This document shows, one piece after another, positions 1 through 16,219 of a DNA stretch of 64,000 bases. Under the pieces are notes generated by a model that saw only the letters and a list, made by a program, of their open reading frames with translations, had not been told where the DNA came from and did no database searches. A program made the position numbers and the translations under genes. The stretch is from Fidelibacterota bacterium (GTDB lineage: Bacteria; Fidelibacterota; Marinisomatia; Marinisomatales; JABMOV01): contig JBHHUC010000001.1 in assembly GCA_046861395.1 (NCBI GenBank), positions 1-64,000 on the forward strand. Reading direction: 5' to 3'. Every line of letters begins with the position of its first letter. Within the stretch, counting starts at the first letter, position 1.

Positions 1-1061
1 AAATCATCAAAGGACATATTCTGATCGCCAATCCGGACGAGTGTATTCCGGGTGCGGTCTACTAGGTATACCTGAACGTTTCGCCTTGGAAACGGATTTG
101 ATTTACTAATCTGGGCATACAGTCGTGGAATAATTATTATGATTAACAACAGGGCAGTAGCAGGTATCGGTTCGGTGATGGCATGTGGTCGGTTTTCTAT
201 CCACCAGGAGCCCATAAACAGCGACAGAATGATGAGGATTTGCACCGTATGAAAAAACAGAAACTGATGGCGTAAAACGATTGCAACCAGAACAAAAAAG
301 AAGAAGAGCAACGACGGGGAAAAACTGTATATGCCGACCCATAATGGTTTTCGCCACAGTACCAGAATAATTGCAATGACCACTAAAAGCCATTGAAAAA
401 GTGTAATCGGTCCCGGCAATAAATGGCTCCACCAGAGGTTGGTCGTATCCCGTATGAATTCTATGCCAAACCGGAACAAAAAATAAGCGGCGATGAAAAG
501 AATTCCCATTCGATTCTTGTCCTTCGTCCTGTTACGCATGAACAGCAAAAAGACAACTGAAAACATTAGGAAAATAATTTCATACGCCGGCACGGGGTGA
601 ACGGACAACGACTGTTTGGCTCCGGGAGGAATCTGCTCTGTCAATACATGCAGCATATAAGCCGGATATCCGCTGCCATAGGTGATTCCCCAAGGAAGAT
701 CGGTGGGAGAACCGAAGCAACAACCGCTCACGATACATCCGATTCGTCCGATTCCCAGGCATACGGAGAGGAATAGGGCAAATAAATCACCAACGGGTTC
801 ATTTATTCCCAGGATGGCCGAACCCAAAAACAGTCCCGCCGTTGCACCCAGAATGACTGTCATAATGGATGGTGCAAGCAATGAACCTATAGCCCCGCCG
901 ACGGTTGACACGAATAGCAATAACAGTGTCGTGCTCCCCGAGTTAATCCGGTGCCGTAAACAGTAAAACAATACCAGTTTGCCCGCCAGGACATTGACAA
1001 GACCCAACCAAAACCAAATAGAGATTCCAGACGTTTGAAATATTGGATTCACCATCGGCAT
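1..1061 (-). CDS. Lgt-family (prolipoprotein diacylglyceryl transferase-like) membrane protein with C-terminal extension; 3' end runs off the window
   Basis: Manual translation from ATG 1061 is open to base 1, so it is missing from the ORF track. It contains Lgt-type motifs GIGRIGCIVSGCCFGSPTDLPWGITY, HPVPAYEI and YFLFRFGIEFIR, and many hydrophobic segments. Confidence 0.75.
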   Translation of the reverse strand, partial: MPMVNPIFQTSGISIWFWLGLVNVLAGKLVLFYCLRHRINSGSTTLLLLFVSTVGGAIGSLLAPSIMTVILGATAGLFLGSAILGINEPVGDLFALFLSVCLGIGRIGCIVSGCCFGSPTDLPWGITYGSGYPAYMLHVLTEQIPPGAKQSLSVHPVPAYEIIFLMFSVVFLLFMRNRTKDKNRMGILFIAAYFLFRFGIEFIRDTTNLWWSHLLPGPITLFQWLLVVIAIILVLWRKPLWVGIYSFSPSLLFFFFVLVAIVLRHQFLFFHTVQILIILSLFMGSWWIENRPHAITEPIPATALLLIIIIIPRLYAQISKSNPFPRRNVQVYLVDRTRNTLVRIGDQNMSFDD

Positions 1062-5397: not shown

Positions 5398-5426
5398 GAA
5401 AAGAAAACCCCGCCGAAGCGGGGTTT
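5398..5426 (-). terminator. rho-independent terminator closing the motor operon
   Basis: On the minus strand: AAACCCCGC-TTCG-GCGGGGTTT followed by TCTTTTCT, i.e. a 9-bp stem, UUCG loop and U tract, starting just after the fliG-like stop. Confidence 0.85.
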
Positions 5427-5439
5427 AGAAAGGAAAACC

Positions 5440-6375
5440 CTATTCGATTAATTCGCCACCTTCTACAAAGTCAGCCAGATTATAGGCCCCGTCTTTTTCC
5501 ATCTGTCGGGCAGCCTTGACAACCGTCTTTCGTGCTTCATCCACCTCACGTTTCGCCACGGCACCTTCCACCGGCTCATACATGGCCTGCTTCTTCTGTG
5601 GTAAATTGTCCAATACTTTTTTTTCTACTTCTTCCGGCATTCCTTTCAGGGCCAGGGCCACCGTATCCAAATCCACGGAATTCATGAGATCTCGTAACAG
5701 ATTATCCGGGAAATATTCGAAAATATTTTCGAATGTCAGATGGTACTTCTGGATTTCCTTGGCCAGCTCCGGACTTTCCCGATTAATGGCTTCGAAATAT
5801 TTTTCCTCTTCTTGGGGTGGCATTTCACTGAGAATATCGGCAATTTCCTTGCCGCCACCACGTGAGAATTCCACGGTGCGGGGAAGGAAATGTGATTTTT
5901 CCCTTAAATCGGCGGCTACATTGACCACCGCTTCCAATGGAATATCTTTCAGGCTACCCAGTTCGATCAGGGTGCGTCCCTTGTCCTCTGGTTTCAAACG
6001 GTTCAACACCAACATCCGTCGTTCCGGTGTGACCTGGGCCAGGATAATGGCCACGACCCGAGGCTCTTCCGGGCTCAGCAATGCTACCAATTGTTCATCG
6101 GTGAGCTCATGAACGAATTCAAAAGGTTTCTGCGGTTTATCCTGGTCGTCGACCGACTGGAATTTTTCACTGACAAAACTGAAATAGAATTCTTCCAGAA
6201 CGCGTTTTTTTATGGAAAAGGAAACCGTATCCATTTCTCTCATCGTGGCCCGGATTTTCCTGATTTCCGTTTTGCTCAGACCTGTCACCAGGGTTAAAGC
6301 CAGACTTTCCCCAAGCACCAAAAAGAGGATGGCAACTTTTTGCAGACCCGACAGACGGTAATAATCTGTAATCAT
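5440..6375 (-). CDS. fliG: divergent FliG (flagellar rotor protein homologue)
   Basis: LSGLQKVAILFLVLG (FliG-N), KPFEF, EEPR at the EHPQ position, GG linker RGGGKEIADIL, ALALKG and C-terminal EVDEARKTVVKAARQMEKDG. Confidence 0.85.
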   Translation of the reverse strand: MITDYYRLSGLQKVAILFLVLGESLALTLVTGLSKTEIRKIRATMREMDTVSFSIKKRVLEEFYFSFVSEKFQSVDDQDKPQKPFEFVHELTDEQLVALLSPEEPRVVAIILAQVTPERRMLVLNRLKPEDKGRTLIELGSLKDIPLEAVVNVAADLREKSHFLPRTVEFSRGGGKEIADILSEMPPQEEEKYFEAINRESPELAKEIQKYHLTFENIFEYFPDNLLRDLMNSVDLDTVALALKGMPEEVEKKVLDNLPQKKQAMYEPVEGAVAKREVDEARKTVVKAARQMEKDGAYNLADFVEGGELIE

Positions 6376-6384
6376 AGTGCCTCC

Positions 6385-7938
6385 TTATTTCTTTTTCTTT
6401 TTTTTCTTACCGGTATCTTCTTCCGGCGTTTCGGTGGTGGTTTCTTCCGGTTCAGCGGGCGGAGGCGGTGCTTCCTCCTGCATCCATTCCTTGACAATGC
6501 GAGACGTGGTTTCCGGTTGTCCCACGCTCATACTTACAATGGATTTGCGAATATCACCGATTTCGCTCTGCAACACACTGGGGTCCTCTTCCACCGGAAC
6601 CACCGGTTGGGTCGGTTGCGGGGCTGGCTGGACCGGAGTTGTTTCGGGCTCTGGTTTTTTCTCTACGGTCCTACTTTTTTTTTTGCGACGACGTGGGGGA
6701 TACATATAGGGTGGCGGCGGATAGGCCGGCTGTTTCGATCCCCGGAAAGCCATAAAGAGGAGGGCCACCAGCAATATCAGGAGCAATACCCCCAGCAGGG
6801 AAAGAAGAATAATAACATAAGTGGGAATGCCGCCTTCTTTCTGAAGCTGATCCAATTCTGTTTTAACAGATTCCAGGGCAGCAATACGCTGTTCGATGGT
6901 TGATTCCAGAGCCTGCCTTTCTTGCTCCCGTTCCGAAATAACGGATTCAGCTGCTGTTGCAGTTGAGTCCGGGACAGTATTGGATTCAATCATCGCTTTC
7001 AATTGCTGAATTTCAGCGTTTAAGACCATCAGCTTCAGGGAGTCCTGCCGTAATATTTCCTGTTTTTCTTTGCGGAAAGCCCGTTCCCGTGCGGCGGCTT
7101 CCAGCGTACTTAACTGTGATTTGAAAAATTCACGGTCTTCTTCGCGACGTTGGGCTTCTTGAGCTTTGTACTCTTCCAGTTCCTTTTTCCAGTCTAAGGT
7201 CTGACTGTCATCGACGTCGCGACGGGTTTTTTCGATTAGTTCCAGTTTTTCAGCGATATTTTTCAACAATATTTGTTCGGCTGTTTTTTCATCCTTGCGC
7301 TCTTTAAAGCTGGCGGTGATCAGATTAATCTTGTCACCCCGGGCGCGGTTATACCGGGAAGCTACCAGTACAATCTGGCGCACATTTTCGATCATTTCCG
7401 GTGCTAAACCCTCTTGCAGGATGACACTGATTTCCATTTTTTGCACCTTTGCTATCGACGGACGTTTTACCGATGCTGTGCGGGATAATATATCTTCGCC
7501 TGATTCTTTTGGTTTGGACTCAATAATTACTGGTGCTTTTTCTTCCACCGTTTCAACGTCGGATCCCTGCGGTTCTACCTCAAATTCAAATCCAGGGATT
7601 GGTAAACCGACCATTGTTTCCCGGTCTGGTGTTTCGCTTTCAGTCGGCGTTTGCAACAAGGCCTCGAGATCTGCGTTTTCCGTATCTTCTTGCCCCGTGG
7701 AGGAGGGACCGTAGGTCACCTGCTCTTCCATAGCGTCGCTCAACTCAAGCGTAACATTTATATCCACAACAAATTGGGATGGGTCTATGATTTTCGTCAA
7801 TCCATCCTGAATGCGTTGCCGCAAATCATTTTCAACCATCAATTTTTGCGTTAGATAGCCTTCTTGGGCGGATAGAAATCCCGCCACCAGGGCCATTGTC
7901 AGGATAAATACGATGGGGGTAACAAACCGTCTCCTCAT
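6385..7938 (-). CDS. FliF-like MS-ring protein: signal/anchor, RBM3 with beta-collar, long coiled coil, TM helix and FliG-binding tail; lacks RBM1/RBM2
   Basis: Start at ATG 7938 with AGGAGAGG RBS. RBM3-like ENDLRQRIQDGLTKII..FVVDINVTLELS..EEQVTYGP and KMEISVIL..IENVRQIVLVASRYNRARGDKINLITASF. One C-proximal TM helix. Tail QPETTSRIVKEWM resembles the FliF C-terminal PExxAxxIrxWl. Lies directly upstream of fliG. Confidence 0.75.
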   Translation of the reverse strand: MRRRFVTPIVFILTMALVAGFLSAQEGYLTQKLMVENDLRQRIQDGLTKIIDPSQFVVDINVTLELSDAMEEQVTYGPSSTGQEDTENADLEALLQTPTESETPDRETMVGLPIPGFEFEVEPQGSDVETVEEKAPVIIESKPKESGEDILSRTASVKRPSIAKVQKMEISVILQEGLAPEMIENVRQIVLVASRYNRARGDKINLITASFKERKDEKTAEQILLKNIAEKLELIEKTRRDVDDSQTLDWKKELEEYKAQEAQRREEDREFFKSQLSTLEAAARERAFRKEKQEILRQDSLKLMVLNAEIQQLKAMIESNTVPDSTATAAESVISEREQERQALESTIEQRIAALESVKTELDQLQKEGGIPTYVIILLSLLGVLLLILLVALLFMAFRGSKQPAYPPPPYMYPPRRRKKKSRTVEKKPEPETTPVQPAPQPTQPVVPVEEDPSVLQSEIGDIRKSIVSMSVGQPETTSRIVKEWMQEEAPPPPAEPEETTTETPEEDTGKKKKKKK

Positions 7939-7985
7939 AACCTCTCCTAAATAAACTATTTCTTGTAAATGCTTCATGGATATAC

Positions 7986-8741
7986 CTAGCCGGATCCTGC
8001 CGGTGACAGGAATGTAATTTCCACCCGGCGATTTTTAGCTTTTAATTCGTCAGAACGATTAAGATCGCGAATCAACTCGGCATCAATGATCCGGTCGGTG
8101 GGGCGATCCCGGGGCACATTTTCGGCATACCCCACGGCCTGGAGCCGGGTGGGTGGAATGCCCAGATTAATTAATTCACGTACAACAGCTGCTGCGCGGG
8201 CACCCGAAAGTTCCCAGTTGGAAGGATAAATCTCTTTTACGCGGTCGGGAATAGGATCTGCATCCGTATGTCCTTCCACCGCTACCATGAAATAGGACTT
8301 TTCAATGGTAGGTAATAGGGTTTTCAATATTGGAATGATTTCCGACCGAATATCTGCCGAAGCCGGCTCAAAGCTGATATCGGACGCAATCGCAATGGTC
8401 ACGCCTTTGGGGCTTGTGGTTACTTCCACCGGTTTCTGCCCTGTCTTGGGGTCGGTTGGCATTTCTTTCACCATTTTATCGACTGCTTTTTTAATATCCG
8501 CCAGGGACATGGCCTGGTTTTTAATTTTCTTTTTCTGGCCGACGGATTTTCCCATGGAATCGGCCATTTGCTGCAGTTTGACCGGATCAATCGTCGATAT
8601 GGCGGCCAGCAAGACAAAGAACGCCAGCAGCAGTGTCATCATATCGGCAAAGGTGCCGAACCATCCTGGCAATCCTTCATCCACCTCGGTGCGACCTTTT
8701 TCCAGATATTTCTTTTTCAGACGATTTAAATCCTGAGCCAC
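7986..8741 (-). CDS. motB: stator B subunit (MotB/PomB family)
   Basis: TM WFGTFADMMTLLLAFFVLL with the essential Asp, plug helix, OmpA-like peptidoglycan-binding domain (GHTD, SNWELSGARA, NRRVEI). GTG start. Confidence 0.95.
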   Translation of the reverse strand: MAQDLNRLKKKYLEKGRTEVDEGLPGWFGTFADMMTLLLAFFVLLAAISTIDPVKLQQMADSMGKSVGQKKKIKNQAMSLADIKKAVDKMVKEMPTDPKTGQKPVEVTTSPKGVTIAIASDISFEPASADIRSEIIPILKTLLPTIEKSYFMVAVEGHTDADPIPDRVKEIYPSNWELSGARAAAVVRELINLGIPPTRLQAVGYAENVPRDRPTDRIIDAELIRDLNRSDELKAKNRRVEITFLSPAGSG

Positions 8742-8744
8742 CTA

Positions 8745-9533
8745 TTATTCCTCTTTTTTCCATTCTTTGGGCGGAATGAATGAATTCAGCTTTTCGCGTA
8801 CAATGATGGGGTGCTTTTTCTGATGTATCAGGCGGGACGCCTCGACGAACATGGCCTGTAGCGTGTTGGTGACAGTGATGCGCATGGTCAGCTTGGCCGC
8901 CATGGGTAAAAAGAACAGGTTGGCAAACACCGCACCGTAAAAGGTGGTGATCAAAGCAGCCGACATACCGGCGCCCAGAGCATCGGTGCCACCGCCTTCT
9001 TCCCCGCCAAAACCGGAGAGCATAATGACCAGACCGATAAGCGTCCCGATCATACCCCAGGCCGGTGCCATCGTTCCCATGGTTTTGAACAGGTCCGCCT
9101 GAGTTTTTTCCCGTGTTTCACGATAATCTATCCGGGTATTCAAAATGTCCGTTAATTCCTCAGCGGAATACCCATCCACAATCATCTGGATTCCATCCCG
9201 GAAAAAGGGATTCTTAATGGAATCAATAAACTTTTCCAGTTCTGCCGTTCCCTTACGTGCCACTTCCGACACTTCCACAGCCATATCGACAAATTCGCCC
9301 AGTTTCGTTTTGCTACCCTTAAACACTGCTGCCATGGCCGAACCCAACTTCATCACCTCTGACAGGGGAAAGGCTACCGATACGGAAGCGACCATCCCAC
9401 CAAACACAATGGCAAAGCTTGAGGTTGATATAAACCCGGCCATGCTGGCGCCGGCCTGGCTGGCCGCCAGGAAAATTCCGCCGTAAATGGAGCCGAGTCC
9501 TATGATGATACCAATAATTGTTGCAAGATCCAT
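8745..9533 (-). CDS. motA: stator A subunit (MotA/PomA family)
   Basis: MDLATIIG start, ARKGTAELE, GIQMIVDG, APAWGMIGTLIGLV, ALITTFYG..NLFFLPMAAKL. Confidence 0.95.
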   Translation of the reverse strand: MDLATIIGIIIGLGSIYGGIFLAASQAGASMAGFISTSSFAIVFGGMVASVSVAFPLSEVMKLGSAMAAVFKGSKTKLGEFVDMAVEVSEVARKGTAELEKFIDSIKNPFFRDGIQMIVDGYSAEELTDILNTRIDYRETREKTQADLFKTMGTMAPAWGMIGTLIGLVIMLSGFGGEEGGGTDALGAGMSAALITTFYGAVFANLFFLPMAAKLTMRITVTNTLQAMFVEASRLIHQKKHPIIVREKLNSFIPPKEWKKEE

Positions 9534-9541
9534 AGGCGCCT

Positions 9542-10903
9542 TTACTCCTCTAAAATGCTGGTTGATTTCAGGCGATTTTCATGCAGCGCTTTCAGAATGT
9601 TACGAACATCCTCATATTCCGGATCGAGGCGTAAAGCCAGATTCCAGTCAATTGTCGCCCGTTGAATATCGCCCAGTTTATAATAAATTGATCCGCGGCG
9701 AGCATACGCCAACGCCAAGTTGGGATTAAGCTCCAGTGCCGTTTCCACTTCATTCAAAGCTTTGCGGTAATCGCCGGAATAAAAATAGCGCAATGATCGC
9801 GATAAATGCCGCATCGCTTCATTCATGTTGGCTTCCGACACATTGCTTTTCAATACCATGGACATGAGAGAATCTTCCATGGCTTTGGCATGTTGTTCCA
9901 TAGCCGACAGGCGAATGATCAGGTTGCGCATTTCATTGCTCATTAAGTCCATGGAGTCCCGCAGCGAGTGCACTGTATAGTCGGCCACCTTCAGCGTGGA
10001 ATCAAATTGTGTGAATTCTTCATTCGTTCCCGGCAGATTCATTTGTGATGGTACAAGCGGGGACGGCCCACCGCTTCCGTACCGGGCGCCCGGCGGAGCC
10101 TGGGGTACCGCCATTTCCAGTCCCAAAGTCAGTCCGGGATGACCGACCCAATACCGCGACGACCAGTTTGGTAGTTTTTCAATGTGGGTGAACCCAACGT
10201 TTAAGCGATAATCCGAGGTAAGGGGGATGCGGAGTCCCACATTGACGCCTGTGCCGTCGAATTCACCCACTAAATCCATGCCGCCCCATCGGGAAAAATA
10301 GGGTGTGTTAAAAACAAAACCCGCGAAAACCCCGGCGCCCATACTGGCCGAATCGGGGTTTACAGGAATGGTGTCAGCGCGGGCAAATCCGCCACTGCCG
10401 AAACCTAAATACGTGCTCATGGTGTAGTCACCAACGGGTTTGGTGCTGCCGACCACTACAAAGAAAGATAATTCTGTCGGATTGAGACTTAATCCCGTGT
10501 TGGGATCATTCTGAAAAACAATATCCTGCAATCCAACTGATACTGAAATATCATTAAAGGAATAAATCCGTTGCTGTAAATGAAACCCGAATTCCACCGG
10601 AATCTGGGCCTGGGTTACTCCCAGGTTGGCAATCTCCGTTGTATCGGCCCCAATGGCCGACGAAAACCCGAGCAGGAAATTCTTGCCCAGTTCTGCTTCA
10701 AAACGAATACCTTTGGCTGTATTCAGATTTGTGAAGTTGTGAATTTCAATCCCGAATCCGGTCCGAAAAAGAATGGAACTGCGCTGGGCGGTACTGGTGG
10801 GGATTTTCATCATCATTCCGGGCCGTGTGTAGGCTACTCGGGTCGCCGAATAACCGACGGCCACCATACATAGCAAACCAAGTAGAGTCGAGTTCAATCT
10901 CAT
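9542..10903 (-). CDS. exported protein: beta-strand-rich (possible outer-membrane barrel) domain, coiled coil and C-terminal TPRs
   Basis: Signal peptide. Alternating Gly/aromatic strands (GEFDGTGVNVGLRIPLTSDYRLNVGF). Heptad region. TPR consensus ALELNPNLALAYARRGSIYYKLG..ALRLDP. Confidence 0.7.
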   Translation of the reverse strand: MRLNSTLLGLLCMVAVGYSATRVAYTRPGMMMKIPTSTAQRSSILFRTGFGIEIHNFTNLNTAKGIRFEAELGKNFLLGFSSAIGADTTEIANLGVTQAQIPVEFGFHLQQRIYSFNDISVSVGLQDIVFQNDPNTGLSLNPTELSFFVVVGSTKPVGDYTMSTYLGFGSGGFARADTIPVNPDSASMGAGVFAGFVFNTPYFSRWGGMDLVGEFDGTGVNVGLRIPLTSDYRLNVGFTHIEKLPNWSSRYWVGHPGLTLGLEMAVPQAPPGARYGSGGPSPLVPSQMNLPGTNEEFTQFDSTLKVADYTVHSLRDSMDLMSNEMRNLIIRLSAMEQHAKAMEDSLMSMVLKSNVSEANMNEAMRHLSRSLRYFYSGDYRKALNEVETALELNPNLALAYARRGSIYYKLGDIQRATIDWNLALRLDPEYEDVRNILKALHENRLKSTSILEE

Positions 10904-11820
10904 GGAATTAATTCCGCTTTTTTAATTTCCAATTGTGCCAACCGCAAATAGTCGCTGTCCGGATAATCCCTGACCACGGTTAAAAAGGCATCCAGGGCCA
11001 GGTTTTCCTGGCCGGTTTTCCGATATAAAAGCCCCTTTTGGACGAGGGCATCATCAATGCGGTCTGATGACTCAATCCGCAATAATTGATCCAGGACATC
11101 AATGGCGACTTGATAGTTTCCCTGTTGCTGATAGGCATCCGCCAGCCAGTACAGCACATTCGCAGCCGTGGCAATATCGGTGTGTGAAAGATCCAGTTTT
11201 AAGAAGTTTTTAATGGCTGATTCATAATCCTCTTTCTGATAGGCCATTACGCCGGCCATATAGAGCGAAGGACTGAATGTCAGGGGAACCTGTCGCACCG
11301 GTTTTTGCTTCGGGGGCGGTGGGCTGCTCATAGTCGGTACCGTTCTCATTTCCGGCAAATCTGTGATGTCGTCTATCTCTTGTAATATTTCAATATCTTC
11401 TTCCAGATCCGCCAAGTCAACCTGGGGACGAGACGGACGTTGCAACGGTGGTCGCACATATTCCGCCAGCATTCCGCGTAATTCCTGATTTTCCGACTTC
11501 AGTGAATTAATTTCGCTTTTAAAAGACGAATCCAGGTCATCCATCCGTGCCTGGATGCGTTGCAGGGCTGCCAGCATTTCCTTTGAGGCCGCCATATACA
11601 CCGATCCGCTTTCCACCTTTTTCACCCGTAGTTTCACTTCATCGGATGTCGTTTTTACAAAGCGGGAATATTGCTCGTTCCCCGTGGTAGGTTCAATAAC
11701 GATTCCCAGATCCAAGAAAAAGATGTCAGCCGTAGACGGTTCTGGATTGGATTGTCCCCGGACCGGTAGAGAGAAACTTACCAGGGCCAGGAAAAGAACT
11801 GTTTTGTGGCCGTAACGCAT
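10900..11820 (-). CDS. exported coiled-coil plus TPR protein (CpoB/YbgF-like architecture)
   Basis: Probable start ATG 11820 giving signal peptide MRYGHKTVLFLALVSFSLPVRG. Coiled coil. C-terminal TPRs (ANVLYWLADAY, DDALVQKGLLY, VVRDYPDS). 4-bp overlap with the next gene. Confidence 0.75.
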   Translation of the reverse strand: MRYGHKTVLFLALVSFSLPVRGQSNPEPSTADIFFLDLGIVIEPTTGNEQYSRFVKTTSDEVKLRVKKVESGSVYMAASKEMLAALQRIQARMDDLDSSFKSEINSLKSENQELRGMLAEYVRPPLQRPSRPQVDLADLEEDIEILQEIDDITDLPEMRTVPTMSSPPPPKQKPVRQVPLTFSPSLYMAGVMAYQKEDYESAIKNFLKLDLSHTDIATAANVLYWLADAYQQQGNYQVAIDVLDQLLRIESSDRIDDALVQKGLLYRKTGQENLALDAFLTVVRDYPDSDYLRLAQLEIKKAELIP

Positions 11821-11830
11821 CAGTGATGTC

Positions 11831-12988
11831 TTATTCGTATTCTTCCCAGTCAATTACATAGGAATAACCAATGAAGGCGCCAAAGGAATGGGGAACATAG
11901 AGTTCAAAGGTGCCCACGGCCCCCGGCAGGAGCGAAGCGTCCGTGGTAATTCCCGAATCGAAGGTATGATAGGCGCCGCGTACAAATGACGTTAGGGTCT
12001 TGGTTTCGCCGCTCCAGTTCTTACGGAAAACAAAATCAACTTTAACGAAATCGGCGCGACGTCCACCGATATTCTTTATTTCACCGGTAAAAATCAGATT
12101 GCCTTGTTTGTCTTTTTTCTCGGTGATATTTCCCACCAGAACACAGTTGGCTGAAAATTGTTTGGCGGCTTCCCGCGTCATCGGATCGGCCGATGTATAT
12201 TGCGGCTGGGCCAGTTTTGGCATGGGCGGAGGTGAATAGCTGTCGCGGATTTGTTCCGGGATATACTCCTGCTGCTCTTCCGTGATGATATTGTCTACGA
12301 CACGGACAATGTTATCCCGTTCAATAATCAGATAACCAACCAGTGTTTCCACCTTTAGCGATTTTTCATCCTGATAAACGATTTTTCCAAAGACAGTACT
12401 GCCGTTTTTCAGGATAATTTCCTTGGAATATATCGCCAGCGGATTGACCCACATTTTGCTCATGGCCTTCAGATCGTTGACTTCCGTGTTCAAGTGCTTG
12501 ATTTCCGCCACCATTTTTTTGATCTCAAAGCTAAGCTCATTAATGACATAGGACTGATCTTGACTGCCGGCAGCCGGTGTTTTGTCCGCGGTTTCTTCTT
12601 CGCCGGGGGTTACAGCTGCGGTGGTGGACGGTGGTGGTGCCTGGGACAAATGGAGTTCCAGGTCTTCCACGTCATTGGCAATGACCGAAACCGGAACGGA
12701 GGCCTTTCCCAAGGGACCCGCATTTACATCAAGAACATATTCGCCCGGCAGGACATCCTTAAACTTAAATTTACCTTTGCCCATTCCCATGCGGCCCTTG
12801 GTTTCGGTTCGCTGAACCTCCACCCCGTCCTCCGTTTGGAGTAACACTGTGGTTACAACCTTTTCACCCTGAGTGTCCAATACGGTACCGCTAATAGTGT
12901 ACGTATCGGCAGGGATCGCGAAGGAAGTAAGGGCGCATAGCACTAATACAGCTATGGTAAGCCTTTTCATGTGCGCCTCAATTTTCAT
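11831..12988 (-). CDS. exported multidomain protein (carboxypeptidase-regulatory-like domain, coiled coil, small beta domain, FxLYD-like Ig domain)
   Basis: Signal peptide (start 12988 or 12970). YTISGTVLD..GKFKFKDVLPGEYVL. Pro/Thr linker. IILKNGSTVFGKIV. FTGEIKNIG..LLPGAVGTFEL. Confidence 0.7.
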   Translation of the reverse strand: MKIEAHMKRLTIAVLVLCALTSFAIPADTYTISGTVLDTQGEKVVTTVLLQTEDGVEVQRTETKGRMGMGKGKFKFKDVLPGEYVLDVNAGPLGKASVPVSVIANDVEDLELHLSQAPPPSTTAAVTPGEEETADKTPAAGSQDQSYVINELSFEIKKMVAEIKHLNTEVNDLKAMSKMWVNPLAIYSKEIILKNGSTVFGKIVYQDEKSLKVETLVGYLIIERDNIVRVVDNIITEEQQEYIPEQIRDSYSPPPMPKLAQPQYTSADPMTREAAKQFSANCVLVGNITEKKDKQGNLIFTGEIKNIGGRRADFVKVDFVFRKNWSGETKTLTSFVRGAYHTFDSGITTDASLLPGAVGTFELYVPHSFGAFIGYSYVIDWEEYE

Positions 12989-13032
12989 TATAACTACCTC
13001 GGATTTGCAGTTCCTGGAGTTAAAACTCCAAG

Positions 13033-13068
13033 ACGGTAAATATTACCGTTAAATTTCTTATCAATCAA
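13033..13068 (-). promoter_or_regulatory. sigma70-type promoter of the motor operon with an overlapping palindromic operator
   Basis: On the minus strand TTGATT (13068-13063)-N17-TAATAT (13045-13040). Perfect inverted repeat ACGGTAA-ATA-TTACCGT at 13033-13049. Confidence 0.5.
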
Positions 13069-14691: not shown

Positions 14692-15282
14692 TTACTGCCA
14701 GAAAGATTTCAATAATTCCTGGTCTTTGCGCGCCCGGTCCAGGGCTTTTTGAGCTTTCTCCCGAAGCTCCTCCGGCAACCCTTTTTCCAGTGCGGCAGTA
14801 TAGTATTCGATAATATTCTCAAAATCGTCTTCATCGTTTTTTTCATATCCGCGGGCGATCCAGTACAGGGCAACGGCATCATCCGGCTTATAATATGACG
14901 CTTTGTTAAACTGCTCGATGGCATCCCAGAGCTGGCCGGAACTGCCCTTTTTAAAGAGGCGTTTGCCGCATAACATGGCCAGGGAATATTTCATGTCCAC
15001 ATTATCGGGTTGTAATGCCAGTCCCTGTTCCAGCGTCTTTTCGGCAGCCACATCATCTCCGGCGGCCCATTGTTTTTCCGCTACAGCCTGAAAGGCTTCC
15101 AGCAGAAGAATTTGTTTCTCCGGGTCCCGGGCAATCACCTGTAAGATTGAATCCTGTTTGGCAATGACCTGTTCCGGAGCGGTGGCAACCCATTCCCGCA
15201 AGGAAGGTTTCCGGCTGCACCCATAAAAGGTCAGACCCGCCAACAAGAGGTTCAGGCTGTAGTAAACAATCTTTTTAGCCAC
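14692..15282 (-). CDS. TPR-containing lipoprotein
   Basis: GTG 15282 with GGGGAG RBS gives MAKKIVYYSLNLLLAGLTFYGC (lipobox-like). TPR-like helices (AVALYWIARGYE). Confidence 0.65.
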   Translation of the reverse strand: MAKKIVYYSLNLLLAGLTFYGCSRKPSLREWVATAPEQVIAKQDSILQVIARDPEKQILLLEAFQAVAEKQWAAGDDVAAEKTLEQGLALQPDNVDMKYSLAMLCGKRLFKKGSSGQLWDAIEQFNKASYYKPDDAVALYWIARGYEKNDEDDFENIIEYYTAALEKGLPEELREKAQKALDRARKDQELLKSFWQ

Positions 15283-16219
15283 CGTTTTCTCCCCCATAGA
15301 AAAATAAATCCTGGTTCTGATAAAAGGCCCTGTAAAGCTCGGACATGGATTCCACCACATAATAACGATCCTGAATCGTACTGTAATCGAAACGTGTCAA
15401 GGCAATTTCTTCCATGTCAAAGGGAAGAAAGCGGGAGCGGTCGGAGGTTCCCCGGGCGCATTGAATGACATTTTGTGTTTCATCATAGGAAGAAATGATG
15501 CCGGCACCGTAAATCTCATAGGGAATGTCGTTTTCTTTCCAGCGATAAGGGTCCGTTTCTCCTGTATTTTTCAGGAGACCAAATTCATAAGTCCACCAGG
15601 CGAAATTTTGCAATCGTTTCAGGTTGTGGGCCACCAGTTCCGGCGACAGCCCGGCTTCATTCCGAATGATCCGGTAGCCCAGCTTCCCCATGTCGGCCAC
15701 GAAATCGGCGTAATCTTTGTTCACCAGAAACGGGACATGGCCCTGGATATCATGGAAAATATCCGGTTCTGGCGTATAACCTTCATCGTTCTGTATTTCC
15801 TGTCCCGCATACTTTTCCTCAAAGCGGGGTGAATGACGAATAATATCCGTTACGGGGAATTGTCGGTTGGCATTCAGGTAGAAAAATAATTCCTCGTCCA
15901 GAAATCCAGCCACGGGCAGAAGGGTCCAGCCGGTGGCGTTTTCAATGAGCGGTGAAATGGCCTTAAACTCCGGAAAGCGATCGCGGGGGATATGGAGCAT
16001 GCGCAACCCCAATAAGTATTCTTTCGAAGCGTATTGATCCAGTTTTCGTTCCTGGTGCTGATAGAGCTGGGCCCAGATATTGTTTTCCAGGTTGTTGACG
16101 GCTTCATAGCGCTGCGGTTTCAGATAAGAATCGTTCATACTGAATATCCGGATACCGGCAACGGCATGGGGTTGAATGTTGGTAAAAAGGTGATCGTAGG
16201 TATCTGACAGCGGCGGCAT
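15275..16219 (-). CDS. phhA: phenylalanine 4-monooxygenase (pterin-dependent aromatic amino-acid hydroxylase)
   Basis: TGWTLLPVAG, YTPEPDIFHDIQGHVP (two Fe-binding His), WWTYEFGL (Fe-binding Glu), YGAGIISS, IQDRYYV. Confidence 0.85.
   Translation of the reverse strand: MPPLSDTYDHLFTNIQPHAVAGIRIFSMNDSYLKPQRYEAVNNLENNIWAQLYQHQERKLDQYASKEYLLGLRMLHIPRDRFPEFKAISPLIENATGWTLLPVAGFLDEELFFYLNANRQFPVTDIIRHSPRFEEKYAGQEIQNDEGYTPEPDIFHDIQGHVPFLVNKDYADFVADMGKLGYRIIRNEAGLSPELVAHNLKRLQNFAWWTYEFGLLKNTGETDPYRWKENDIPYEIYGAGIISSYDETQNVIQCARGTSDRSRFLPFDMEEIALTRFDYSTIQDRYYVVESMSELYRAFYQNQDLFFYGGENGG

Follow-up and report, generated by a model that had tools for sequence, protein, structure and literature searches.

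The seven genes lying between positions 5398 and 13068 of the window (the whole 64,000-nucleotide stretch of Fidelibacterota DNA that was analysed) are a conserved set that joins a flagellar-type motor core to outer membrane (OM) proteins regardless of the presence of a flagellum, and they therefore probably encode an undescribed ion-driven envelope machine. There is little doubt that the operon represents a second, stand-alone, non-flagellar machine, separate from the flagellum. The best explanation of the whole, which on balance is favoured, is a non-switching ion-driven rotary machine working on an OM complex. No description of the operon was found in the open-access literature, and subscription papers and supplements, which lay outside the search, could list these genes. 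The main texts of PMC13277936 and PMC12505986 make no mention of Marinisomatota.

The operon is made up of A, B, C, motA, motB, a fliF-like gene (F) and fliG*, the asterisk marking the operon's own forms. All seven are on the minus strand with intergenic gaps of -23 to +9 bp, confirming the co-oriented, tightly packed genes reported in an earlier note on this DNA. Family matches identify the flanking genes as an M32 peptidase and a beta-eliminating lyase (tnaA-like), unrelated metabolic genes as that note had described them. Gene order is near-fixed across the relatives in the phylum, A-B-C-motA-motB-F-G being found in 70 out of 78 full-length loci, and the three exported genes remain linked to motAB-F-fliG* phylum-wide, a linkage on which the earlier note's reading depended. 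B is dispensable; it is missing from 7 of the 78 loci and is duplicated in some relatives. Apparent losses of fliG* or A (loci L054, L082, L084 and L099) are artefacts of an ORF-overlap filter, removed by six-frame searching. In comparisons with three relatives all seven genes have dN of 0.09–0.29 with dS saturated or >2, which indicates purifying selection and rules out decay of the operon.

A sigma70-type promoter candidate is present at 13040..13068 on the minus strand, with the -35 TTGATT (13068–13063), a 17 nt spacer and the -10 TAATAT (13045–13040). At 8/12 its consensus score is below the threshold of the consensus scan and it was therefore not reported by the scan. The pattern TTGA[C/T]N-16..18-TANNNT, chosen post hoc, is found in 50 of 58 upstream regions versus 3.2 in shuffles, so that homology supports the promoter previously proposed at ~13.04–13.07 kb. 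The sigma54 motif is found in 0 of the 58 regions, ruling out sigma54 control. The UUCG terminator suggested at the other end is present at 5398..5426 (minus strand), with a 9-bp stem (5426–5405), a cUUCGg loop and a T tail. It is one of 15 terminator-like matches against 12.8 expected and the scan alone is therefore not significant; a similar hairpin region is located 3' of fliG in all 25 relatives listed, most with a T run.

MotA* (262 aa; 8745..9533, minus strand) is a flagellar-type stator A subunit with matches to PF01618 and MotA_N. Its best NCBIfam matches are MotP (E = 1e-53) and PomA (1e-45), versus about 0.03 for TolQ/ExbB. The torque residues R93 and E100 are retained, the interval between them one residue shorter by deletion, and T164, T196 and T197 are retained too; the motif RKG...[LM]E is conserved in 64 of 65 sequences. 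MotB* (251 aa; 7986..8741, minus strand) has the essential Asp in its membrane helix (WFGTFAD, like PomB), a MotB_plug domain and an OmpA-type peptidoglycan-binding domain. The torque Arg and Glu, essential Asp, plug and OmpA domain of a flagellar-type stator are thus all present in the pair. The coupling ion is probably Na+.

The 530 aa protein F (6385..7977, probable start 7938, minus strand) has a signal peptide, an RBM3 domain with a beta-collar insert containing a conserved PIPGF motif (126–130), a helical stalk, one membrane helix (about 385–412) and a FliF_C-type putative FliG-binding tail motif (about 470–500). PF08345 (FliF C-terminal/RBM3) is matched by 34/34 F homologues and PF01514 by 0/34, meaning that RBM1 and RBM2 are absent. 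The protein that the earlier note called FliF-like is not a full FliF, being RBM3-only on a long stalk. This stalk has a median length of 164 aa (131–210, n = 71), compared to about 27 for the flagellar FliF of the same cell. The tail motif, which aligns to the tail of solved FliF, is found in 70 of 71 homologues.

FliG* (311 aa; 5440..6375, minus strand) has N, M and C domains and retains Gly-Gly, with about 27 residues absent after D1; the deleted segment is probably domain D2. Databases label it 'flagellar motor switch protein FliG'. The EHPQ(R) motif of FliG mediates FliM binding. In FliG* this is replaced by ExPR, and EHPQ occurs in 0 of 74 sequences. The torque helix is three residues shorter, its acidic side shortened and interrupted by a proline, and LP.KKQAM[YF]E is present in 74/74. 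The torque surfaces of MotA* and FliG* are therefore both altered, and both near-invariant. In quick, unrooted trees with long branches, FliG* and its fusions (27 rows) are on one side of a branch from flagellar FliG (SH-aLRT 99), as are 23 MotA* rows from flagellar MotA (SH-aLRT 100), so that in two of the three phylogenies proposed by the earlier note the operon copies are separate from the flagellar ones. A natural F-FliG* fusion family (P0254-type) exists (probability 97%); of its gene context, one metagenome scan was empty and a second gave one unrelated FliG fragment. Longer forms of FliG* were not returned by a word index, which is weak evidence, and a HMMER search gave one. In a Vibrio FliF-FliG fusion, FliG rings formed without FliM/FliN are reported to be flexible and to show poor order (PMC10941966), and in the inner FliG ring it is D2 that completes the D1 beside it (PMC11087270). 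With D2 apparently absent as well, a stable large FliG* ring is therefore not assured.

The three exported proteins have largely the character proposed for them from the first inspection. C (453 aa; 9542..10903, minus strand) has a signal peptide, a predicted 12-strand OM beta-barrel (44–267), a periplasmic coiled coil (302–360) and a highly conserved C-terminal TPR region (360–452), in keeping with the suggested barrel plus TPR. The model (pLDDT 72.8) gives the barrel a KdgM/NanC/FapF fold, YjbH-like, with Z 17.2 to KdgM (rmsd 2.2, 162 aligned) and Z 15.4 to FapF. In the Atlas, YjbH clusters are matched by features (0.93, 168/256 shared) and by structure (TM 0.72); the YjbH Pfam family PF06082 has no HMM match in 38/38 C members. 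B (317 aa; 10900..11853, probable start 11820, minus strand) is an exported coiled coil and TPR protein, consistent with the CpoB-like assignment in that its best match is YbgF/CpoB (TIGR02795, E 1.4e-13, under cut-off).

A (385 aa; 11831..12988, alternative start 12970, minus strand) is, as proposed, an exported Ig-like multidomain protein. After the signal peptide there is an optional CnaB/transthyretin-like Ig domain (30–113), a conserved coiled coil (145–180), a small beta domain (189–232), which may be Sm-like, and a C-terminal FxLYD-like Ig domain (282–382). Among families there is a weak match to a carboxypeptidase-regulatory (Ig-like) domain; Lepto_7_Nterm is matched over residues 189–232 by 32/32 homologues and FxLYD by 13/32, mostly under or near cut-off. 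The N-terminal domain matches CnaB/pilin folds at Z 10–12, and this domain fills the fold-search list, while for the C-terminal 240 residues the Atlas gave only unnamed Fidelibacterota clusters. In deep-branching lineages A lacks the CnaB domain, and its signal is of the lipoprotein type, with Cys. Complex prediction of C(296–453) with A(142–385) and F(36–255) scored 0.65, 0.00 and 0.00, which with controls not folded is not evidence either way.

Contig C63 of the host genome carries a complete flagellar cluster with its own FliF (PF01514 and PF08345), FliG, FliM/N and MotAB. The genes in the window are therefore not the missing parts of the flagellum, and the window is ruled out as the only source of fliF, fliG and motAB in the cell. 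'Flagellum-less', as the earlier note had it, is true of the operon but not of the cell. Across 276 genomes of SAR406/Marinisomatota, the marine phylum to which the host belongs, counted by hand at E<1e-30, FliG* is present in 203 and FlhA (PF00771) in 63. FlhA is absent from 157 of the 203 carriers, FliG* occurs alongside a flagellum in 46 genomes, and 17 flagellated genomes lack FliG*. C and FliG* are found together in 198 genomes, with just one of the two in 11. Flagellin, FliM/N (FliMN_C) and rod families were matched in 0 of 5 carriers tested, including one with a single contig (G063), with 4 controls positive. Because whole families lack the operon (f13 0/21, f15 0/5, f16 0/4 and most of f20 and f23), it is not essential to the phylum. 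It is retained in genomes of 1.4–2.5 Mb, which with the sigma70-type promoter and the absence of a sigma54 motif favours a core role.

The proposed machine would derive from a paralogous version of the flagellar motor core and be insulated from the host's flagellum. In it MotA*5B*2 stators would anchor to peptidoglycan and, once docked, conduct ions, probably Na+, and turn the FliG* ring. That the stator drives the FliG*/F rotor is fairly likely. Rotation would be in a single direction, since there is no FliM/FliN or CheY input. FliG* would grip the cytoplasmic tail of F, which would span the inner membrane once and, by way of helical stalks, carry its RBM3 ring at a height of about 20–25 nm, near the OM. 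There the ring may engage the coiled-coil/TPR stalk of C and an A oligomer, probably through the PIPGF loop, with these taking the place of a rod and B an optional scaffold. The chance that force reaches C/A in this way is about even. The likeliest job would be to gate or pull cargo via the C barrel, or to shift the complex of C and A with respect to the wall; housekeeping envelope or transport work as the output, rather than motility, is suggested tentatively. A stalk ring rotating through peptidoglycan would require a hole or bushing, which no operon gene clearly supplies. A fuller account, its likelihood just short of even, sees a true rotary motor that combines a flagellar stator with a FliG rotor but has neither flagellum nor export gate; its ring, derived from FliF, would cross the periplasm and rotate an OM barrel complex. 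This would be an old family, with F-FliG fusions in other lineages, split deeply from flagellar FliG and MotA. Joint changes in its torque surfaces would let it operate alongside the flagellum, and it may be similar to a minimal motor of pre- or post-flagellar type.

The injectisome of non-flagellar type III secretion is flagellum-derived, having retained the export gate but not the stator. The operon likewise re-uses a flagellar sub-machine without a filament, yet is its mirror image, with stator and rotor kept and the export gate lost. Neither the SctJ RBM1-2 ring nor the SctV/SctRSTU gate of injectisomes is indicated, F having no PF01514 and most carriers no PF00771. The operon shares with the flagellar motor core (FliF, FliG, MotA5B2/PomA5B2; FIT, TGI4-type stators of PMC12505986) a stator with plug and OmpA domain, the FliG domains and Gly-Gly hinge, and the RBM3/beta-collar and FliF_C tail. 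It differs in that F lacks RBM1, RBM2 and the first membrane helix, and therefore has no export-gate seat, and has a 130–210-residue stalk. FliG* differs in its FliM-binding motif, D2 and torque helix, as above, and the operon is tied to an OM barrel and two exported proteins, without requiring export, rod, hook or filament. The predicted fold of C resembles the 12-strand OM barrels YjbH/GfcD (DUF940), FapF and KdgM (PMC8592465), but C has one barrel only, to which a coiled coil and TPR are fused, and the operon has no polysaccharide genes. Zorya ZorAB is also a MotAB-like 5:2 motor without a flagellum. PADLOC matched ZorB alone, by virtue of the MotB fold common to both, and none of ZorA, C, D or E; ZorA has a long cytoplasmic tail whereas MotA* is just 262 aa, which together rule out identity with Zorya. 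The distribution of the operon is vertical and conserved, unlike a defence island.

It is possible, though unlikely, that the same rotor and stator move either a surface adhesin, A with its pilin-like CnaB domain, or the C barrel over the surface, in gliding or flagellum-free swimming. The CnaB/pilin fold matches agree with this, as does the use of 5:2 ion motors to power Bacteroidota gliding via an OM track (as outlined in PMC13104615), while GldM and GldN were unmatched in 61 relatives, where no control genome was positive. However, the operon has no switch or chemotaxis input, A dispenses with CnaB in deep lineages and is lipoprotein-like there, and the operon is kept beside a flagellum in the 46 genomes. 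The only cultured member of the phylum, which may or may not carry the operon, is described as non-motile (PMC11652737). The likeness to the GldLM motor and GldKN ring of gliding and the type IX secretion system (T9SS), as outlined in PMC13104615, is one of analogy only, both combining an ion motor in the inner membrane with an arm that spans the periplasm and an OM ring or track. None of the seven operon proteins matched the GldL/M or GldK/N families, there is no homology, and the operon stator is MotAB-type, acting via a cytoplasmic FliG ring.

Less likely again is a complex with no continuous rotation, acting as a load sensor or as a tether across the envelope that is static or ratchets, in which ion flow through the stator reports or adjusts OM-wall attachment as a Tol-Pal substitute. 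TolB is above cut-off in 1/61 relatives and Pal in 0/61 with positive controls, B is CpoB-like and FliG* may not make a stable ring, but TolB and Pal are also missing in non-carriers and the operon encodes no signalling domain. Tol-Pal and TonB-ExbBD (generic ion transporters, GIT) are similar in passing force from an ion motor to the OM with a CpoB-like TPR partner. They differ in that the operon stator is flagellar-type with a MotB-type partner, FliG and RBM3 are present, and TolA/TonB, TolB and Pal are absent from the operon. Tol/Exb motors need neither FliG nor an RBM3 ring, and here both torque surfaces are strongly conserved.

Replacement of GldLM/GldKN by the operon as energiser of the type IX translocon SprA is improbable. 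SprA is matched in 268/276 genomes, the host encodes a T9SS-tailed protein, and the missing GldM and GldN matches would fit. SprA is also present in every genome of families without the operon (f13 21/21, f15 5/5, f16 4/4) and in f23 20/20, however, and an obligatory link is therefore excluded. In addition, sprA is unlinked, on a different contig, and the 12-strand model of C ranks with KdgM and FapF, the T9SS barrel 6h3i_F giving only a weak Foldseek match (rmsd 11). That the operon is a degenerate flagellar-motor remnant or accessory, as the flagellar-homologue parts and the flagellum in the host might suggest, is very improbable and largely refuted by the distribution, given the flagellar cluster's own copies, the 157 carriers without FlhA, the 17 flagellated genomes without FliG*, the strong purifying selection and the separate FliG* and MotA* clades.

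In every characterised case known to us, a FliG-MotAB pair drives a flagellum. A rotor and stator conserved together with neither an export gate nor a switch, rod or filament would form a natural minimal motor and the injectisome's counterpart. New here are the coexistence of the operon with a full flagellum in one genome and the phylum-wide counts. It becomes testable whether a FliF-FliG-MotAB core can work alone, how two stator-rotor pairs are insulated in a single cell, and what use the motor may have had before or after a filament. Matches to fliG or motAB alone are no proof of motility in SAR406 genomes, FliG* being named in databases as flagellar. Roughly three in four genomes of this abundant ocean phylum carry the operon, so it bears on the biology of their envelope.

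The seven minus-strand genes at about 5.4-13.07 kb of the window (A, B, C, motA, motB, F and fliG) are genuine open reading frames in a single orientation and tightly packed, as the earlier note had read them. The MotA, MotB, FliF C-terminal domain, FliG and two TPR protein assignments are backed by Pfam and NCBIfam. The terminator is located at 5426-5405. The proposed promoter is weak against the consensus, yet it is conserved among relatives; a sigma70-type pattern, picked post hoc from sequences already viewed, is present in 50 of 58 upstream regions versus 3.2 in shuffled sequences. No sigma54 motif was seen in these 58 regions. The named close relatives are Marinimicrobia/Fidelibacterota, i.e. 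Marinisomatota or SAR406.

The earlier note had called this operon a flagellum-less rotary motor. That description suits the operon but not the cell: in the same genome (94% complete), contig C63 carries FlhA, FliP, FliM/N and rod proteins, together with three genes of the flagellin family. A two-domain FliF, a FliG, a MotA and a MotB belong to the C63 cluster itself, and the operon genes are therefore a second set rather than the sole fliF, fliG and motAB of the cell. The two FliG proteins are 26% identical.

The phylum survey covered 276 genomes, each 85% or more complete. FliG of the operon type was counted by hand at E<1e-30, with 23 weaker matches excluded as canonical FliG or distant. 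It is present in 203 genomes and FlhA in 63; both occur in 46, operon-type FliG alone in 157, FlhA alone in 17 and neither in 56, these being genomes related by descent and not independent samples. Gene C was found in 204 genomes, 198 of which also hold operon-type FliG. In five well-assembled carriers there was no match to flagellin, FliM/N or rod proteins, while four controls were positive; one of the five, G063, is a single contig in which the operon is intact. It is very probable that the operon is a real and conserved unit, separate from the flagellum.

Gene order was surveyed in 105 loci bearing operon-type FliG (78 with at least 8.2 kb upstream), excluding nine loci fetched for other purposes; some genomes appear twice among them, and these loci also served to build the profiles. 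The linkage of the exported genes to motAB, F and fliG is borne out, their order being kept in nearly all full-length loci of relatives. The arrangement A-B-C-motA-motB-F-G is found in 53/78 loci, a second B in 15/78, and B is missing in 7/78. C is split by a frameshift in 2/78, representing a single genome fetched twice. The sole broken full-length locus (1/78) is L078, where only the TPR end of C is retained before motA, with opposite-strand genes upstream (L078:5159-6720), through rearrangement or misassembly. Gene order in the 27 shorter loci is consistent with the same arrangement. The genes flanking the operon differ between relatives. Upstream of A, at 14692-16219 of the window, are two genes, one for a 222-aa TPR lipoprotein-like protein and one resembling aromatic amino acid hydroxylases (PF00351), a pair that precedes A in many relatives, not all. 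Against three close relatives, dN is 0.09-0.29 and dS is saturated or >2 for all seven genes.

In quick, unrooted trees, operon MotA (23 rows) splits from 30 flagellar-like and three orphan MotA rows (SH-aLRT 100). Operon FliG and five fused proteins split from 50 canonical FliG rows, including the C63 copy (SH-aLRT 99), a grouping whose support could be inflated by long branches. A search of 1.84 billion representatives with operon FliG returned about 13 clusters of its own type on top and canonical FliG next. Named members of these top clusters are Marinimicrobia, with the exception of one short archaeal-labelled contig.

F has a signal peptide, and its RBM3/beta-collar matches solved M-ring proteins. 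RBM1/2 were found in 0/34 F homologues; a FliF_C-type tail was found in 70/71. The stalk before the single membrane helix has a median length of 164 residues, versus about 27 in the C63 FliF. If helical, it would be about 24 nm long and would bring the ring close to the outer membrane. All 71 homologues have a PGF motif located in the beta-collar insert. The loop of this insert grips FliE/FlgB in flagella.

Signal peptide, RBM3, membrane helix, tail and FliG are joined in a single natural protein in P0254 and in four relatives. These fusions share the short N-domain of operon FliG, and over their N-terminal part they match F (probability 97%, E 9e-11); unlike the operon proteins, they have a torque helix of full length and a stalk that is short. 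Among canonical-type FliG hits are other fusions: FliM-FliG (P0151, P0199), full FliF-FliG (P0248) and FliG-PilZ (P0156). In family f16, which is without the operon, 513-514-aa frames on G018:C8, G032:C13, G043:C7 and G054:C24 weakly match the middle region of operon FliG (23-29% identity).

Operon FliG is missing about 27 residues after subdomain D1, a gap that seems to correspond to D2 as defined in a passage of PMC11087270. The EHPQ motif occurs in 0/74 homologues, and the torque helix is shorter by three residues, invariant in 74/74. Operon MotA retains the torque Arg and Glu, residues named in a passage of PMC12505986, with their spacing shortened by one residue. That both partners are altered points to an insulated stator-rotor pair. 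The MotB motif WFGTFAD resembles PomB, and the top-scoring families for MotA are MotP and PomA; Na+ coupling of the stator, judged from Na+ ligands, is somewhat favoured. Two more MotA/MotB-type stator loci lie outside the flagellar cluster and the operon (G000:C23:16844-18388 and G000:C109:563-2772). They cluster with the second MotA of locus L067, and a second MotA is found in many non-flagellated carriers. These could be alternative stators for the rotor of the operon.

The predicted structure of C is a 12-strand barrel with a long helix and TPR. In a fold search the barrel is nearest KdgM, NanC and FapF, and YjbH-like clusters also match. In A, an optional domain of CnaB-like type is accompanied by a conserved coiled coil, an Ig domain and a small beta domain; in deep lineages the sequence of A looks like that of a lipoprotein. 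B, a CpoB-like protein, is dispensable. The genome also has an unlinked paralogue of A (244 aa, G000:C97:3300-4034) and one of B (281 aa, CpoB-like, G000:C130:1127-1972), the latter adjoining an FtsW/RodA-family-like gene.

The operon would share its manner of working with the flagellar motor core and has a layout similar to the GldLM-GldKN motor. On the features tested, it does not belong to the flagellum, injectisome, Tol/Ton or Zorya families. TolB and Pal are missing from carriers and non-carriers alike, with no canonical Tol-Pal in 61 relatives (TolB over the cut-off in 1/61, Pal in 0/61). This genome holds a single ExbB/TolQ-size gene, on contig C80, and an open frame of 2123 aa that contains two OmpA/Pal-like domains (G000:C8:29334-30356). 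The operon is undescribed in the open-access literature searched (titles, abstracts and main-text passages). Its parts are known; their combination is no characterised kind of system.

Motility is a possible output; the lone cultured member of the phylum, which may or may not carry the operon, is non-motile according to a passage of PMC11652737. An obligatory link to the T9SS fails because SprA is present in 268/276 genomes, operon-less families included. SprA, at G000:C84:26830-28218 in this genome, was matched even in Marinisomatota genomes of 0.8-1.1 Mb. GldM and GldN matched in 0/61 relatives, with no control genome positive either.

Three points count against an outer-membrane machine driven by this motor: Vibrio fusion FliG rings without FliM/N are disordered, as stated in a passage of PMC10941966, operon FliG is seemingly without D2, and several families survive without the operon. 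The most likely scheme is nevertheless of this kind. Stators anchored on peptidoglycan would turn a non-switching ring of operon FliG, and F would transmit the torque through the periplasm to an outer-membrane complex of C and A; the job of the machine as a whole would be housekeeping work on the outer membrane.
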